DNA of 64,000 bases from the NCBI GenBank assembly GCA_033648345.1, contig GCA_033648345.1_4121.1; one strand, given 5' to 3'. Below the pieces are notes generated by a model. The model did no database searches. It worked only from the letters and a program-made list of their open reading frames with translations, and was not told the DNA's origin. Source of the stretch: a phage. Of this stretch, positions 1-60,284 are shown piece by piece. The number at the start of each line of letters is the position of its first letter. The stretch's first letter is position 1. Made by a program: the position numbers and the translations under genes.

Positions 1-240
1 CAAAACAGGCAACATTCGGTGGCTTGTGTAAATATGAGGACTAAACATATGTTGATTTACCAATGTGATAACATTCGTGTTATGCAGCATCCCTACTTAC
101 AAATCTTTGATGTGCAGCAGTATATGGAAGGTGATGACCCAAGAACCTATGGTCGTAAGTATGATTACTTCACTGTAAAGCAGTGTCATAACATCAAAGA
201 AGTACGACAATTAGTTCAAGAACTTCAAAATAAAGGTTGA
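1..240 (+). CDS. hypothetical protein (5' end outside window)
   Basis: Frame open from position 1; stop 238-240 lies inside hairpin terminator 235-252. Confidence 0.5.
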   Translation, partial: QNRQHSVACVNMRTKHMLIYQCDNIRVMQHPYLQIFDVQQYMEGDDPRTYGRKYDYFTVKQCHNIKEVRQLVQELQNKG

Positions 241-266
241 CTTCGGTCAACCTTTTTTGTTATAAT
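235..266 (+). promoter_or_regulatory. UUCG-tetraloop terminator hairpin with embedded -35 and downstream -10
   Basis: GGTTGAC-TTCG-GTCAACC + T6; TTGACT inside stem; TATAAT 261-266. Confidence 0.7.
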
Positions 267-295
267 TATTTCATCAACTACTGGGGATTTTAATT

Positions 296-736
296 ATGTA
301 CGTATATCGTTTTGAACTTAAATTCAGTTATATTGAACCTAACTTAGATCCAGCAAAAACAGTAGGGCCGTTCGCACGGTACTCTTCACGATACAGTACT
401 AAAAATGGATTTGACCGTTTGTGCATGACCACGCCTTCGCAATTCCAACCAGAACCAACTGAAGATGGAATCTATTCAATCAAACGTGGCTGGGCATTTG
501 GCTGTCAGAGTTTGAATGATTTGTTTAAGTTCTTTACTATGGACTTGGGTAAATTACATCGTGCAGGGTTTGCTGTATCAGTATATGAAGTTCCTGATAA
601 TCATGTTGACATTGGTCGTAGTCAGGTTCAGTACTATTGTGGTAGTGCCAATCTGGTTCGTATTATGTCAGTGAGAGAAGCAAAGGATGAGTACCGCCAA
701 AGTAAAAGAGTAATACATGAGGCTGTATATGGATAA
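296..736 (+). CDS. hypothetical protein
   Basis: 146-aa ORF, GGGGA 8 nt upstream of ATG, downstream of promoter module. Confidence 0.7.
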   Translation: MYVYRFELKFSYIEPNLDPAKTVGPFARYSSRYSTKNGFDRLCMTTPSQFQPEPTEDGIYSIKRGWAFGCQSLNDLFKFFTMDLGKLHRAGFAVSVYEVPDNHVDIGRSQVQYYCGSANLVRIMSVREAKDEYRQSKRVIHEAVYG

Positions 737-1073
737 GACTCAAATAGAATTAAAAAAATTTGTATCGTTTTATCTACCCAATGACCCACGTTGTACACAA
801 TATGATGTTGCATATTACAATGCATTGACTACACAGTTAATGAAGAAATTCAAACAGTGTTTGACTGTATTCAATGATGATGGTAGACGTAGATATAGAA
901 TCATTCCAATGAATGATGAAAACGATAACTACTTTGACTTTGATGTTGTTTTTCGAGCATACAATGATGATAGAATAAAATTAAATTATGAGCAAATAAT
1001 GCTTGACCTGAGTGTTATCTGTGTTATAATTACTCACATAGCCGAACTTGATGGTTTAAAAGAATGGTATTGA
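729..1073 (+). CDS. hypothetical protein
   Basis: ATG 729 overlaps upstream stop; track start 717 is a non-ATG extension. Confidence 0.6.
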   Translation: MDKTQIELKKFVSFYLPNDPRCTQYDVAYYNALTTQLMKKFKQCLTVFNDDGRRRYRIIPMNDENDNYFDFDVVFRAYNDDRIKLNYEQIMLDLSVICVIITHIAELDGLKEWY

Positions 1074-1087
1074 CTTAGAGGATAATC

Positions 1088-1354
1088 ATGAAGCTTAAAT
1101 TACAATACAATGGTTTTACTTTGCGTAACGACACTGAGTTTGTCAATCGTTCACCAGGTGCTGAGTTGTTTTTGCGAGAGATGAACATTCCTTTCGTCAT
1201 CACTACTGTTGGTGACCGTGAAGTTCTACAATACGCAGAGCATCCAGTTATTGATGTTCCGTGGTATTCTGAGCATATGTATATGGATATGGCCCGTCGC
1301 TACGACTGTAAGTTCGTAGTTGAAGGTGATAAAATTACAGTCCAATTCAAATAA
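1088..1354 (+). CDS. hypothetical protein
   Basis: 88-aa ORF, AGAGGA RBS upstream. Confidence 0.7.
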   Translation: MKLKLQYNGFTLRNDTEFVNRSPGAELFLREMNIPFVITTVGDREVLQYAEHPVIDVPWYSEHMYMDMARRYDCKFVVEGDKITVQFK

Positions 1355-1365
1355 GGTAACTTAAA

Positions 1366-1659
1366 ATGATCAGTACTTCAGTAAATGCAAGCATCGTGGC
1401 AGACGTAGAAATGGTTAAAGAATGTACAGACGAAACCCTTCGCAACATGTACATCAACGATTTGATTTCAGAGTACGGAAGTCGTGGTGTTCATGAGTTT
1501 GTTCGCCTGAGCGGTGAATTGATGAAGAATCGCATTCGTATGAAGCTTAATGTGCATCCAAAAGCATGGGCGTTTACAATGAAGTACGCTGAAGATATTG
1601 TTGAGTTGCGTCGCAATGATGTGTATAATCGTTTACACAATGGTACATTAAAGGACTAA
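1366..1659 (+). CDS. hypothetical protein
   Basis: 97-aa ORF, AAGG RBS, followed by hairpin terminator. Confidence 0.7.
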   Translation: MISTSVNASIVADVEMVKECTDETLRNMYINDLISEYGSRGVHEFVRLSGELMKNRIRMKLNVHPKAWAFTMKYAEDIVELRRNDVYNRLHNGTLKD

Positions 1660-1664
1660 ATTAT

Positions 1665-1696
1665 AGGAATCCGTAAAAGGATTCCTGTTCTTGTTT
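1665..1696 (+). terminator. intrinsic terminator
   Basis: AGGAATCC-loop-GGATTCCT followed by T-rich run. Confidence 0.6.
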
Positions 1697-1709
1697 ATAA
1701 GGTAATAAA

Positions 1710-58504: not shown

Positions 58505-58777
58505 ATGTCCAGCTACTCCGCTACTATGATCATTAAAGATATGAACGGTAATCCTACTTCTGCTGGTGGATCATTTGGAAACATTAATTTAGATGGTCGG
58601 TTATCCATGCAATCAGCCATCGATGCAGCGAAAGAAGTTTTTAAGAATGAATGTACTGTAAGTAAGCTGGATTATATGGGATTCGCTATCGAAAAAACTA
58701 ATCGTTTTGTGAACTACAAAAATCCACTGATGATCGATACTAACCTGAAAGCAAACGAAGTGGGGTACTTATTATGA
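58505..58777 (+). CDS. hypothetical protein
   Basis: 90-aa ORF; Chi at 58562. Confidence 0.7.
   Translation: MSSYSATMIIKDMNGNPTSAGGSFGNINLDGRLSMQSAIDAAKEVFKNECTVSKLDYMGFAIEKTNRFVNYKNPLMIDTNLKANEVGYLL
58562..58569 (+). other. Chi octamer (in coding sequence)
   Basis: GCTGGTGG. Confidence 0.9.
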
Positions 58778-58965
58778 CAGTTGAAGAAGTTAAAAAAGTA
58801 CTGGCAGTACTACGCTATCATAATCATTGCAAGGTGAAGAATGATCCTGATTATCTCGATTCATCCCTGGAAGAGGATACACTACAAGCAATAAGCCATA
58901 TGCAAAAAATGCTTAAGCGTATGACCGAAAAGAATAGGCCGGACTATATCGGAAATAAAATTTAA
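58774..58965 (+). CDS. hypothetical protein
   Basis: 63-aa ORF, ATGA overlap. Confidence 0.65.
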   Translation: MTVEEVKKVLAVLRYHNHCKVKNDPDYLDSSLEEDTLQAISHMQKMLKRMTEKNRPDYIGNKI

Positions 58966-59052
58966 AAAGTACTTGCATTGTAGTTAGATTAACGTATAAT
59001 GTTTTATATCGAGAGGGGGAAATGGTTTCCCCTCAAGTCCAGGAGATACACC
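58966..59052 (+). promoter_or_regulatory. promoter + 5' stem-loop cassette
   Basis: AGTACTTGCATTG..TATAAT; hairpin GAGGGGGAAA-tgg-TTTCCCCTC. Confidence 0.7.
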
Positions 59053-59316
59053 ATGAACACTATCGAAATCACTATCAATGCACACGTATACGACAACGTA
59101 GTACTGCAAACTACTATGACCGCTAATGATACCAGTACTTTGCGGAATACTGTTATTAGTGCCGTATGTGCTGCAATCGGTGATGTATCCCTGGAAAATG
59201 CAGAACATATCAACAACGGTTTCACTATGTGCAAGCGTGATAACGCAAAACATATCATCGTGGAAGGTTACGGCGGTGTAGAATTTAATGTTTATATGAA
59301 AAAAGTACTTGCATAA
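59053..59316 (+). CDS. hypothetical protein
   Basis: ATG 59053 (MNTIEITINA) after AGGAGA. Confidence 0.7.
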   Translation: MNTIEITINAHVYDNVVLQTTMTANDTSTLRNTVISAVCAAIGDVSLENAEHINNGFTMCKRDNAKHIIVEGYGGVEFNVYMKKVLA

Positions 59317-59383
59317 TAACTAAAACAAAGTATAATGTTTTGCATAGGGGGAGATATCCTCCCCCACTAAAAGGAGTAATAAA
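59295..59383 (+). promoter_or_regulatory. promoter + 5' stem-loop cassette (-35 inside upstream gene end)
   Basis: AGTACTTGCATAA..TATAAT; hairpin GGGGGAG-atatc-CTCCCCC. Confidence 0.7.
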
Positions 59384-59608
59384 ATGGCTAACTTTGATGA
59401 ACTGATGCGGGAAGTAGCTAACCTGGCAGAAGAGAAGAAATCATTCGATTCTATCTATAACACCGCTCACCGTGATTCAGTACTGGCATGTAACCAGGAT
59501 CAAAAAGATGAACTAATCGCCACCTATCATGAAGCATGGAAGTACTACCGACAATGGGAGAAAGAAGAAAGTGAGTCTACCATTGACGGCCTCAATAATC
59601 TAATCTAA
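59384..59608 (+). CDS. hypothetical protein
   Basis: 74-aa ORF, AAGGAG RBS. Confidence 0.7.
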   Translation: MANFDELMREVANLAEEKKSFDSIYNTAHRDSVLACNQDQKDELIATYHEAWKYYRQWEKEESESTIDGLNNLI

Positions 59609-59684
59609 AAGTTTTATTTCAGTACTATTGACATAGCTTGATAGTACTGATGTAATAACTTTACTAACTACAAGGGGAAACATA
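59609..59684 (+). promoter_or_regulatory. promoter class AGTACTATTGACA..AGTACTG
   Basis: CAGTACTATTGACATAGCTTGATAGTACTGATGTAAT. Confidence 0.6.
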
Positions 59685-59942
59685 ATGGAACAGTTCACAC
59701 AATATCGGGTAAATCCACAAGCTATGGCCTACGTAGAAGACCATAAAACGTTACCAGTACTGCAACCAGTTAAAGGCCGTATCTATCGTGGCCTTGCCTG
59801 GGATACGGCCCAGGATGGATATAAAACCGTCGCCGTGGGGATGTATTGCGGGAATGGTGAATGGTTTGATCCTAGCAATCCGATTGCACTTGACAGTACT
59901 GAAAAAATGAAATGGGCCGACTACATCGAAGATATTTCATAA
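59685..59942 (+). CDS. hypothetical protein
   Basis: 85-aa ORF. Confidence 0.7.
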   Translation: MEQFTQYRVNPQAMAYVEDHKTLPVLQPVKGRIYRGLAWDTAQDGYKTVAVGMYCGNGEWFDPSNPIALDSTEKMKWADYIEDIS

Positions 59943-60032
59943 AAACTATTTGACAGTACTAACCAGTAATGTATAATGTTTTACATAGAGCGGGGGAATA
60001 GTTCTCCCGCCAATAGTTTGGAGTTAAACATT
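59943..60032 (+). promoter_or_regulatory. promoter + 5' stem-loop cassette (TTGACA class)
   Basis: TTTGACAGTACTAACCAGTAATGTATAAT; hairpin GCGGGGGAA-tag-TTCTCCCGC. Confidence 0.65.
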
Positions 60033-60233
60033 ATGTCTATCGCTATCGCCCTGGTTGAAGTACTGAAAGAAGCTAAAGCCAACCAGATCGACGTAAAGAT
60101 CCAGGAACTACAAAACGGCTTAATCGGCTGTACTTGTACCGCTGGTGGAGCGGCAGACTATCGAGAACACGAATCACTCGAATCACTGGTTCGGTATCTT
60201 ACCATGATCGTTGATGATTGGAGAATCATCTAA
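60033..60233 (+). CDS. hypothetical protein
   Basis: ATG 60033 (MSIAIALVEV); Chi at 60151. Confidence 0.65.
   Translation: MSIAIALVEVLKEAKANQIDVKIQELQNGLIGCTCTAGGAADYREHESLESLVRYLTMIVDDWRII
60151..60158 (+). other. Chi octamer (in coding sequence)
   Basis: GCTGGTGG. Confidence 0.9.
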
Positions 60234-60251
60234 CAAAAAAAGAATAAAAAA

Positions 60252-60284
60252 GGGATTGACTCCGGTCAGTCCCTTTGCTATTAT
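60252..60284 (+). promoter_or_regulatory. UCCG hairpin terminator with embedded -35 and downstream -10
   Basis: GGGATTGAC-TCCG-GTCAGTCCC; TATTAT 60279-60284. Confidence 0.7.

Follow-up and report, generated by a model that had tools for sequence, protein, structure and literature searches.

The closest described relatives of the elements analysed here are the promoter-early stem-loops (PeSLs) of the phages RB49 and phi1, originally described by Arbiol et al. 2010: sigma-70 promoters associated with stem-loops that can overlap the –35 box (PMC2839356). PeSL promoter clones were strong, one PeSL stem-loop was about as effective as rrnB T1 in lowering lacZ expression, and mini-circles arose by recombination between adjacent PeSLs (PMC2839356); PeSLs were next found in PST/T4 and nt-1/KVP40 (Comeau et al. 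2014, PMC4122927). Here we analyse twelve hairpin modules in a 64,000-nucleotide (nt) stretch of phage DNA (contig GCA_033648345.1_4121.1, hereafter ‘the window’) originating from an Asteriusvirus jumbo coliphage of the 121Q/PBECO4 group, with E. coli as the host. With good, if not complete, confidence we read these modules as PeSL-type composite regulatory cassettes that carry a terminator and a sigma-70 promoter in one unit.

The layout is that of PeSLs – stop codon, A-rich tract, –35 and –10 boxes at ~17 bp, GC-rich stem-loop, Shine-Dalgarno (SD) sequence and ATG – and a stem-loop as in the –35-overlap PeSL subclass (PMC2839356) is present in the window modules. Both sets of elements lie among small accessory genes and, more tentatively for the window modules, at the boundaries of indels and replacements between close relatives. 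There are three differences. The window phage is a Rak2-like jumbo phage, while the published PeSL hosts are all T4-like (Straboviridae), a restriction that follows from where PeSLs came to be known first and is no mechanistic criterion; the –35 box always lies in the 5′ arm here, as against five positional subclasses in RB49/phi1; and four copies head a non-coding leader instead of a gene.

Two other systems are related in part. The UUCG tetraloop was first found in T4 mRNA (PMC4371310), and the C(UUCG)G hairpins of T4 share with the modules an extra-stable UNCG tetraloop closed by C-G, an intercistronic RNA location and a large virulent coliphage as the carrier; however, they are not described as supplying the –35 box of the next promoter, whereas in the modules the loop U also serves as base six of the –35 hexamer. 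Lambdoid morons, treated as the nearest earlier concept to PeSLs (PMC2839356), are likewise autonomous accessory-gene transcription units bounded by a promoter and a terminator, but the two signals are separate, lie at opposite ends of the gene and are not conserved repeats, while in the window one overlapping repeated unit serves two neighbouring genes. Our literature search returned no paper on these composites in Asteriusvirus, and for the relative CBB RpoD-like promoters and terminators are listed separately (PMC5259590).

Twelve hairpin modules in two regions of small genes

Positions 1–13,000 of the window are 97.7% identical to phage CMSTMSU, 98.1–98.6% identical to vB_Ec-M-J, WPEC5, Turkey3 and WPEC3, and 86–88% identical to 121Q and G17; positions 50,000–62,000 match the same Asteriusvirus phages at their left-end region. 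Window position 40,317 aligns with base 1 of fEgEco12, a phage with a direct terminal repeat of 20,993 bp as shown by restriction mapping (PMC13070987), and ~40,317–61,734 is therefore the terminal repeat of the window phage. At 40317 unique sequence passes directly into this ~21-kb repeat. Scripted comparisons took in loci L001, L002, L005, L007, L009 and L020, and left out L003, L004, L006, L008 and others.

Searching the window for TTGACTTCGGTCA with at most one mismatch returned 11 matches, all on the + strand (237, 3831, 4487, 6566, 7248, 11611, 12155, 50524, 54527, 57805 and 60256), as compared to a mean of 0.04 and a maximum of 2 in shuffled sequence. The 22-mer GGGATTGACTCCGGTCAGTCCC is present exactly at 54523, 57801 and 60252, with 0 occurrences expected. 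The twelfth copy is a loop variant, GGGTTGAC-ACTA-GTCAGCCC, at 12492–12511. The coordinates in the original prediction, which mark the first G of the stem, are all correct. The modules are as follows:

229–266, + strand: module 1; stem-loop 229–258 with a UUCG loop, –35 TTGACT 237–242, T6 run, TG, –10 TATAAT 261–266
3825–3860, + strand: module 2; stem-loop 3825–3850, –35 3831–3836, short TTTG, –10 TATAAT 3855–3860, no TG
4483–4514, + strand: module 3, compromised; hairpin 4483–4504 intact, TATAAT 4509–4514 at a 16-bp spacer
6560–6585, + strand: module 4, terminator only; hairpin and T7 run, no usable –10 (TGTAAATAT)
7240–7277, + strand: module 5; stem-loop 7240–7269 with two U·G wobbles (3′ arm GTCGG), T5, TG, –10 TATAAT 7272–7277; SD GGAGG and ATG ~16–26 nt further
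11605–11640, + strand: module 6, 5′ of a denV-like gene (Pyr_excise); stem-loop 11605–11630, T5, TG, –10 TATAAT 11635–11640
12147–12184, + strand: module 7; stem-loop 12147–12176, TG, –10 TATTAT 12179–12184
12487–12524, + strand: module 8; ACTA loop giving a perfect TTGACA, TG, TATAAT, 12/12 match with an 18-bp spacer
50517–50552, + strand: module 9, terminal repeat; stem GTGGTTGAC/GTCAGCCAT, UUCG, TTTTG, TG, –10 TATTAT 50547–50552 at a 17-bp spacer; counterpart at fEgEco12 9498
54520–54555, + strand: module 10, terminal repeat; stem GGGATTGAC/GTCAGTCCC, UCCG, TTTG, –10 TATTAT; counterpart at fEgEco12 13496
57798–57833, + strand: module 11, terminal repeat; sequence as in module 10; counterpart at fEgEco12 16765
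60249–60284, + strand: module 12, terminal repeat; sequence as in module 10; counterpart at fEgEco12 19517

All twelve modules share one orientation, lying on the + strand within + strand gene blocks, and all fall in two regions of small hypothetical genes. Their stems comprise 9–13 pairs, of which 4–5 are G-C, with folding energies of –10.7 to –17.7 kcal/mol. A-runs of 4–8 stand 5′ of every stem and runs of 3–7 T follow it, with the upstream stop codon 0–25 nt before each hairpin. At module 1 the two overlap: the upstream open reading frame (ORF; 19–240) ends at a TGA at 238–240, within both the –35 box (TTGAC) and the stem, and module 11 lies directly 3′ of the stop of a 213-amino-acid (aa) ORF (57144–57785). 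Downstream, modules 1, 5, 6, 7 and 8 are followed by an SD sequence and ATG ~16–18 nt after the –10. The loops had all been taken to be UUCG, and this does not hold throughout: UUCG is found in 8/12 copies, UCCG in 3/12 and ACUA in 1/12. UUCG loops are over-represented in E. coli terminators.

Predicted terminator and promoter signals sharing one stem

The modules have the layout of intrinsic terminators: a GC-rich tetraloop hairpin followed by a T-run, on the sense strand and 3′ of a gene. The GenBank record of G17 carries ARNold terminators of –13.5 to –17 kcal/mol at the homologous hairpins, including the position of module 1, where a coding sequence and the terminator overlap as they do in the window; in the GAP32 record the homologous hairpins are likewise annotated as ARNold terminators. 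Folding is asymmetric between the strands. Over 28 unique copies from the window and its relatives, the + strand RNA folds at a mean of –15.3 kcal/mol as against –10.7 kcal/mol for the complement, and it is the better-folding strand in 26 of the 28; at the first T of TTGAC the commonest pair is U·G (24/28 copies).

These data bear on the idea that the modules are promoters in which the inverted repeat acts on the DNA level, as the operator of a dimeric regulator or as a cruciform, rather than as an RNA terminator. The repeat does overlap the –35 box, which is the classical operator position, and other promoters in the window carry the palindrome CAGTACTG/AGTACT near the –35 or –10 with no T-run, as an operator might. 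However, the arms of the modules are not symmetric as DNA, given the U·G at one position and a complement that folds ~4.6 kcal/mol worse; the outer stems differ completely in sequence between copies and yet stay paired, so no single DNA-binding specificity fits; the loops are mostly UNCG, a feature of RNA stability; and the units always lie just past a stop codon, always with the T-run after the stem. We consider an operator or cruciform highly improbable.

Turning to the promoter, a scan for TTGACN, a 15–19 bp spacer and TANNWT recovered every copy except for the one at 6566. The –35 and –10 had been said to be present in every case; this stands for 10 of the 12 copies, in which TTGACT or TTGACA in the 5′ arm is followed by TATAAT or TATTAT at a spacer of 18 bp (six copies) or 17 bp (four copies), with 10–12 of the 12 promoter positions matching the consensus. 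Nine of these ten have TG one base 5′ of the –10, so that the last bases of the T-run also supply an extended –10 motif. The strong early promoters of T7 and T5 (T7 A1, for instance) are similar in having TTGACT with A-rich sequence upstream of it, and in starting their transcripts with ATCGAGAGGG or ATCGAAAC; T7 A1 differs by having no terminator hairpin over its –35. In the relative PA5oct, host RNA polymerase is used and TTGAC/TATAATA promoters stand at mapped transcript starts (PMC7318152). MotA-type middle promoters were rejected as there is no TGCTT box at –30, and the TGAAACG class known from CBB and GAP32 (PMC5259590) is not present in the modules.

The two remaining copies do not conform. 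At 6566 (module 4) the hairpin is followed by TTTTTTTGTAAATATT, with no acceptable –10, and the same is true of 121Q, G17 and vB_Ec-M-J. The copy at 4487 (module 3) has TATAAT at a 16-bp spacer with an in-frame ATG just 13 nt later. This TATAAT is an insertion junction: collinearity with vB_Ec-M-J is lost at 4505, past the T-run but ahead of the –10, an ORF encoding NUMOD4 and HNH_3 domains (4513–5055) is inserted after the CCTTT of the module, and vB_Ec-M-J, whose homologue is uninterrupted, has TATACT after a spacer of 17 bp. The two copies correspond to the ‘degraded half-PeSLs’ described previously (PMC4122927).

How the stem varies is consistent with a dual constraint. TTGAC never changes across the Asteriusvirus set, while A and G replace each other in the 3′ arm: the differences between modules in this arm are transitions only, preserving either G·U or Watson-Crick pairing, and 92.6% of stem cells are paired. 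A 200-nt query consisting of module 11 and its downstream region matched Asteriusvirus, Mimasvirus (GAP32, CBB), Alcyoneusvirus (RaK2) and Eneladusvirus (Serratia BF, Yersinia fHe-Yen9-04). In the resulting BLAST-derived alignment of homologues across five genera TTGACT is invariant (9/9), the 3′ arm reads GTCAG, GTCGC, GTTAG or GTTAA, the outer stems covary (GGGA/TCCC, GTGG/CCAT, GTAC/GTAC, GGGG/CCCC), the loops are all UNCG (UCCG, UUCG, UACG) and the –10 is kept as TATTAT, TATACT or TACTAT. The terminal repeat of CBB holds 13 further modules, all with TTGAC and a –10, with outer stems that include GAGG/CCTC, AGTACT/AGTACT, GGAG/CTCC and AAGG/CCTT and with 3′ arms GTCA, GTTA, GTTG or GTCG; since the CBB scan required T[TA]GAC in the 5′ arm, the unbiased claim of invariance rests on the nine-homologue alignment. 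A fixed TTGAC facing a drifting 3′ arm is what one would expect were the 5′ arm held to its sequence, as a –35 box, and the 3′ arm only to RNA pairing.

The same pattern is what counts against regarding the modules as terminators or 3′-end stabilising hairpins only, with TTGAC and TATAAT hitchhiking and the genes expressed by read-through or from other promoters. Several observations would suit such a simpler element: the copies at 6566 and 4487 retain the hairpin with no credible promoter, GenBank annotators marked only terminators, and plain terminators with no promoter stand directly before an SD sequence and ATG in the same regions (1663, 2249, 46567, 47298, 56303), which means that read-through expression does occur. 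Were pairing all that mattered, though, TTGAC would not be expected to stay invariant as its partner drifts; the –10, the spacing and the TG are kept across genera with diverged flanks and in unrelated phage families; and in 1–13 kb we found no other promoter between the module hairpins and the next genes. We therefore hold a terminator-only role to be improbable. The window also contains at least 22 promoter cassettes with no terminator and, as these coexist with plain terminators in the same regions, the composites are a distinct class.

The PeSL-type reading draws on features observed directly, namely the anatomy of the sequence, the position between genes, the one shared orientation, the difference in folding between the RNA strands and the way in which the units are conserved; for actual termination and initiation by the modules we infer from the analogy with the measured PeSLs of RB49/phi1. 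The RNA of the upstream gene, AAAA-GGG-UUGAC-(UNCG)-GUCAG-CCC-UUUUU, would fold into a tetraloop-capped GC-rich hairpin followed by a U-run, which would release the host RNA polymerase as an intrinsic terminator or attenuator and also shield the 3′ end. As DNA, the same bases would provide an A-rich UP-like tract, the –35 (TTGACT or TTGACA) in the 5′ arm, a 17–18 bp spacer made up of the loop, the 3′ arm and the T-run, the TG at the end of the T-run and TATAAT or TATTAT, with the host sigma-70 polymerase predicted to start a new transcript ~7 nt past the –10. Termination would thereby occur within the spacer of the promoter that follows, insulating every early gene or small operon from read-through and promoter occlusion. 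The original prediction that one unit ends the upstream transcript and starts the next agrees with the sequence and comparative evidence for 10/12 copies, and fails for those at 6566 and 4487.

Several points weigh against this reading. The U-tract is just 3 T long in five copies, including module 2 and the three UCCG copies (TTTG), so termination may be partial and its efficiency is uncertain. Most copies have an 18-bp spacer, which is above the optimum length, and the lack of a credible promoter at 6566 and 4487 demonstrates that the hairpin can persist alone. Covariation within Asteriusvirus is modest, with three pairs changing on both sides. The copies are homologous repeats, and the co-occurrence of hairpin and –10 in one genome does not, therefore, amount to 12 independent observations. 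Finally, the literature searched contains no 5′- or 3′-end mapping for any Asteriusvirus; the Sharanji, fEgEco12 and RaK2 papers report no transcript mapping or promoter analysis.

The design and function of PeSLs were published in 2010–2014 and are already known, so the finding alone opens no new question. If true, it would make a map of transcription readily available across the early and accessory regions in Asteriusvirus and related giant phages, where no function is known for ~83% of the gene products of phAPEC6 and for 487 of 670 genes predicted in fEgEco12, and would extend the PeSL principle beyond T4-like phages. Nearly the same ~50-nt cassette in unrelated phage families bears on the shuffling of accessory genes between phages, and compact insulated terminator-promoter parts could be of use in synthetic biology.

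A putative leader RNA behind the terminal-repeat modules

The four modules in the terminal repeat (50524, 54527, 57805, 60256) each follow a stop codon, and their positions are conserved in fEgEco12. It had been noted that these last copies precede a dispersed core element and not a gene; we confirm this, and the arrangement is kept in other genera. In each case the –10 is followed, in the 3′ direction, by a non-coding stretch with the core element TAGCCCAYMGGGTGC-N5-TGTATCT, an A/T-rich tract, a second promoter (AAAAAGTACTTGCA, 16-bp spacer, TATAAT), a 5′-untranslated region (5′-UTR) hairpin, an SD sequence and the gene. The features, with leader starts set at the predicted transcription start site, are:

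50559–50603, + strand: leader of module 9; hairpin A (UGAG-AGAUAG-CUCA), AGCCCACC, hairpin GGGUGCA-UAAG-UGUAUCU
54562–54600, + strand: leader of module 10; no hairpin A, core element and hairpin 2
57840–57883, + strand: leader of module 11; hairpin A (GAG-AGAUAA-CUC), core element, hairpin 2
60291–60329, + strand: leader of module 12; no hairpin A, core element and hairpin 2
50646–50673, + strand: second promoter behind module 9; TTGCAA, 16-bp spacer, TATAAT, then 5′-UTR hairpin, SD and ATG 50725
54656–54683, + strand: second promoter behind module 10, 3′ of the leader
57927–57954, + strand: second promoter behind module 11; TTGCAT, 16-bp spacer, TATAAT, gene ATG 57976
41586, 43537, 50585, 52247, 54583, 57866 and 60312, + strand: core element copies, those at 41586, 43537 and 52247 being behind other promoters

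The whole array of composite terminator-promoter, structured leader of ~45 nt and second promoter is conserved in five Rak2-like genera, in long terminal repeats or early regions; the leader homologues of CBB (L020) lie at 3762–17455. We compared 17 leaders from the five genera. As MAFFT mis-aligned the short variable hairpin, pairs were counted by script. By this count, a hairpin is present at a fixed distance from the –10 in 14/17 leaders, with a purine-rich loop and a covarying stem that reads GGC/GCC, GCC/GGC, UGAG/CUCA, GACG/CGUC, AGCA/UGCU, ACCAC/GUGGU or UCCA/UGGA. All 17 leaders carry a 7-pair G·U-rich hairpin, GGGUGCR-N4-UGUAUCU, with 5–7 of the 7 positions paired and one-sided changes that keep the pairing; between the two hairpins lies the sequence AGCCCAYAGGG. 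For seven core element copies, RNAalifold predicts just one weak hairpin, G·U-rich and of 7 pairs, in which no pair covaries on both sides. An Rfam search at E ≤10 with module 11 and its leader returned chance-level matches only, and the leader has no Rfam family.

It is possible, though we hold it as doubtful, that the four terminal-repeat copies are dedicated promoters of a conserved ~45–60 nt structured RNA and not gene promoters. The leader might then represent a novel regulatory RNA of phages, acting for instance as an antitermination site of the nut/put kind, an early small RNA of short length or a signal for processing. A T-run follows the core copies at 41586 and at CBB 15238, and where it does the leader may yield a short RNA. 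The plain terminators at 46567–46583 and 47298–47318 (+ strand; AGCCCAC-loop-GTGGGCT, then TTTTTTG) have the same 5′ arm as the leader core element and the same sequence context ahead of it (CACTAGCCCAC...ATAAGTG), and the terminators and the core element may have a common origin.

Possible exchange and spread of the cassettes

The collinear blocks that the window shares with vB_Ec-M-J at 98% identity end at 3894, 3906, 4505, 5111, 11450, 11602, 12167 and 12481, with six of these eight internal breakpoints inside module spans. Breaks fall just downstream of module 2 (3894/3906), at module 6 (11602) and at module 8 (12481), and at module 7 the alignment with relatives breaks at 12165–12167. The gene cassettes that the modules enclose are not the same in 121Q, G17, vB_Ec-M-J and the window: from module 7 to module 8 the window has an 85-aa ORF, where vB_Ec-M-J and 121Q have different, more numerous genes plus an extra module. 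The differences in this segment fit PeSL-type cassette exchange, as judged from the sequences. Compared to the whole sequence, breakpoints are strongly enriched at the modules. A last point counting against our reading belongs here: the modules are the longest intergenic stretches, and against an intergenic-only null, for which the intergenic share was guessed, the excess is not significant (p roughly estimated at ~0.09). Less firmly than their regulatory role, we suggest that these conserved cassettes of ~60 nt are, in addition, recombination points at which gene cassettes are swapped.

Free-standing HNH homing-endonuclease genes adjoin modules in the window (4513–5055, + strand) and in L005 (12635–13048 and 14808–15923). 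The window HNH gene replaces the –10 of module 3, and one vB_Ec-M-J HNH gene ends inside the next module; some of the indels are accounted for by two homing-endonuclease genes, one from the window and the other from vB_Ec-M-J.

A dispersed selfish element of the miniature inverted-repeat transposable element or repetitive extragenic palindromic type was rejected: the modules have one orientation, are always found where one gene ends and the next begins, and lack both terminal repeats and target duplications. A broader version, in which the modules are mainly selfish or mobile repeat cassettes spread by recombination and the transcription signals are incidental, can call on near-identical ~50–60 nt units, including CATCGAAAC, in unrelated phage families, on the alignment breaks and differing gene cassettes at homologous modules of close relatives, on class-B promoter cassettes marking terminal-repeat breakpoints, and on the PeSL mini-circles demonstrated in RB49/phi1 (PMC2839356). 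Mobility of this kind is nonetheless compatible with regulatory function and relies on it for selection, and both the non-significant breakpoint excess and the homing endonucleases detract from it. As the main explanation of the modules we think it unlikely, and retain that of PeSL-type regulatory cassettes.

The design had been described as uncommon, a view that the database does not bear out. A 48-nt module query matched 313 phage records, with query coverage of 80% or more in 143 of them, and the architecture could be read in five unrelated phage lineages:

phi-pp2 (KVP40 species): TTGACT, 18 bp, TATTAT
Aeromonas 65.2 (Straboviridae): TTGACT, 18 bp, TACTAT
Cronobacter CR9 (Vequintavirinae): TTGACT, 18 bp, TATTCT
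Enterobacter EC151 (Queuovirinae): TAGACT in a different stem, 18 bp, TATACT
Yersinia vB_YenM_281 (50-kb genome): TTGACT, 17 bp, TATTAT

The design is, therefore, recurrent. The phi-pp2 unit (GGGTTGACTTCGGTCAGCCC, 18-bp spacer, TATTAT) is identical to that of the window. Megablast of 50000–62000 gave matches of 80–90% identity that include Campylobacter phages (11 records), Phapecoctavirus, Justusliebigvirus and an Acinetobacter phage. The sequence after the –10, CATCGAAAC (11641–11660, 12185–12205) or, in class-B cassettes, CATCGAGAG, is common to modules of unrelated phages: KVP40-type, CR9 and Yersinia vB_YenM_281 (L007 6040–6060, L016 and L018). It resembles the transcript start of T7 A1 (AUCGAGAGGG). 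This sharing suggests that selection acts on the initial transcribed sequence, or else that the cassette as a whole has spread horizontally.

Other repeated features of the window

The promoter cassettes with no terminator are repeats of ~70–95 nt, present in at least 22 copies at 40600–62300 (+ strand) and at 9699–9770. Their layout is AAAAAGTACTTGCAA or TTGACA, a 16-bp spacer, TATAAT, GTTTTACATCGAG, a GC hairpin (GGGGAGAAATGGTTCTCCCC) with no T-run, an SD sequence and the ATG of a small ORF, which by sequence makes them putative promoters with a 5′-UTR stem-loop. The alignment with fEgEco12 breaks on these cassettes, at 44568/45138, 48296/48925, 51167/51339 and 58016. The palindrome CAGTACTG recurs directly 5′ of the –10 and 5′ of the –35, and in one family a 9-bp inverted repeat, CAGTACTAT...ATAGTACTG, surrounds the –35; the palindrome looks like an operator for a regulator of early promoters. 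Examples are:

41992–42059, 45138–45205, 51073–51140 and 58416–58483, + strand: promoter cassettes
43621–43649, 48228–48295, 48522–48589, 51640–51707, 55812–55840, 59606–59673 and many –10 regions: CAGTACTG sites

A tRNA scan and an Rfam search at gathering thresholds over the whole window returned no matches. The minus strand holds ~15 tandem ORFs of similar size (358–449 aa) at 17754–34882, and the + strand two tandem arrays of small ORFs, at 34967–39973 and 13394–15833 (~61–81 aa and ~104–123 aa). The sign of the GC skew flips at ~16 kb and ~40 kb, which are the strand-switch sites. Finally, at 41112–41240 (+ strand), ~800 nt inside the terminal repeat, five overlapping repeat copies with a 16-nt period (TGGCTAGACG / GGCTAAACGGCTAGAT) form an iteron-like array, which may represent an origin or else serve in packaging or protein binding.

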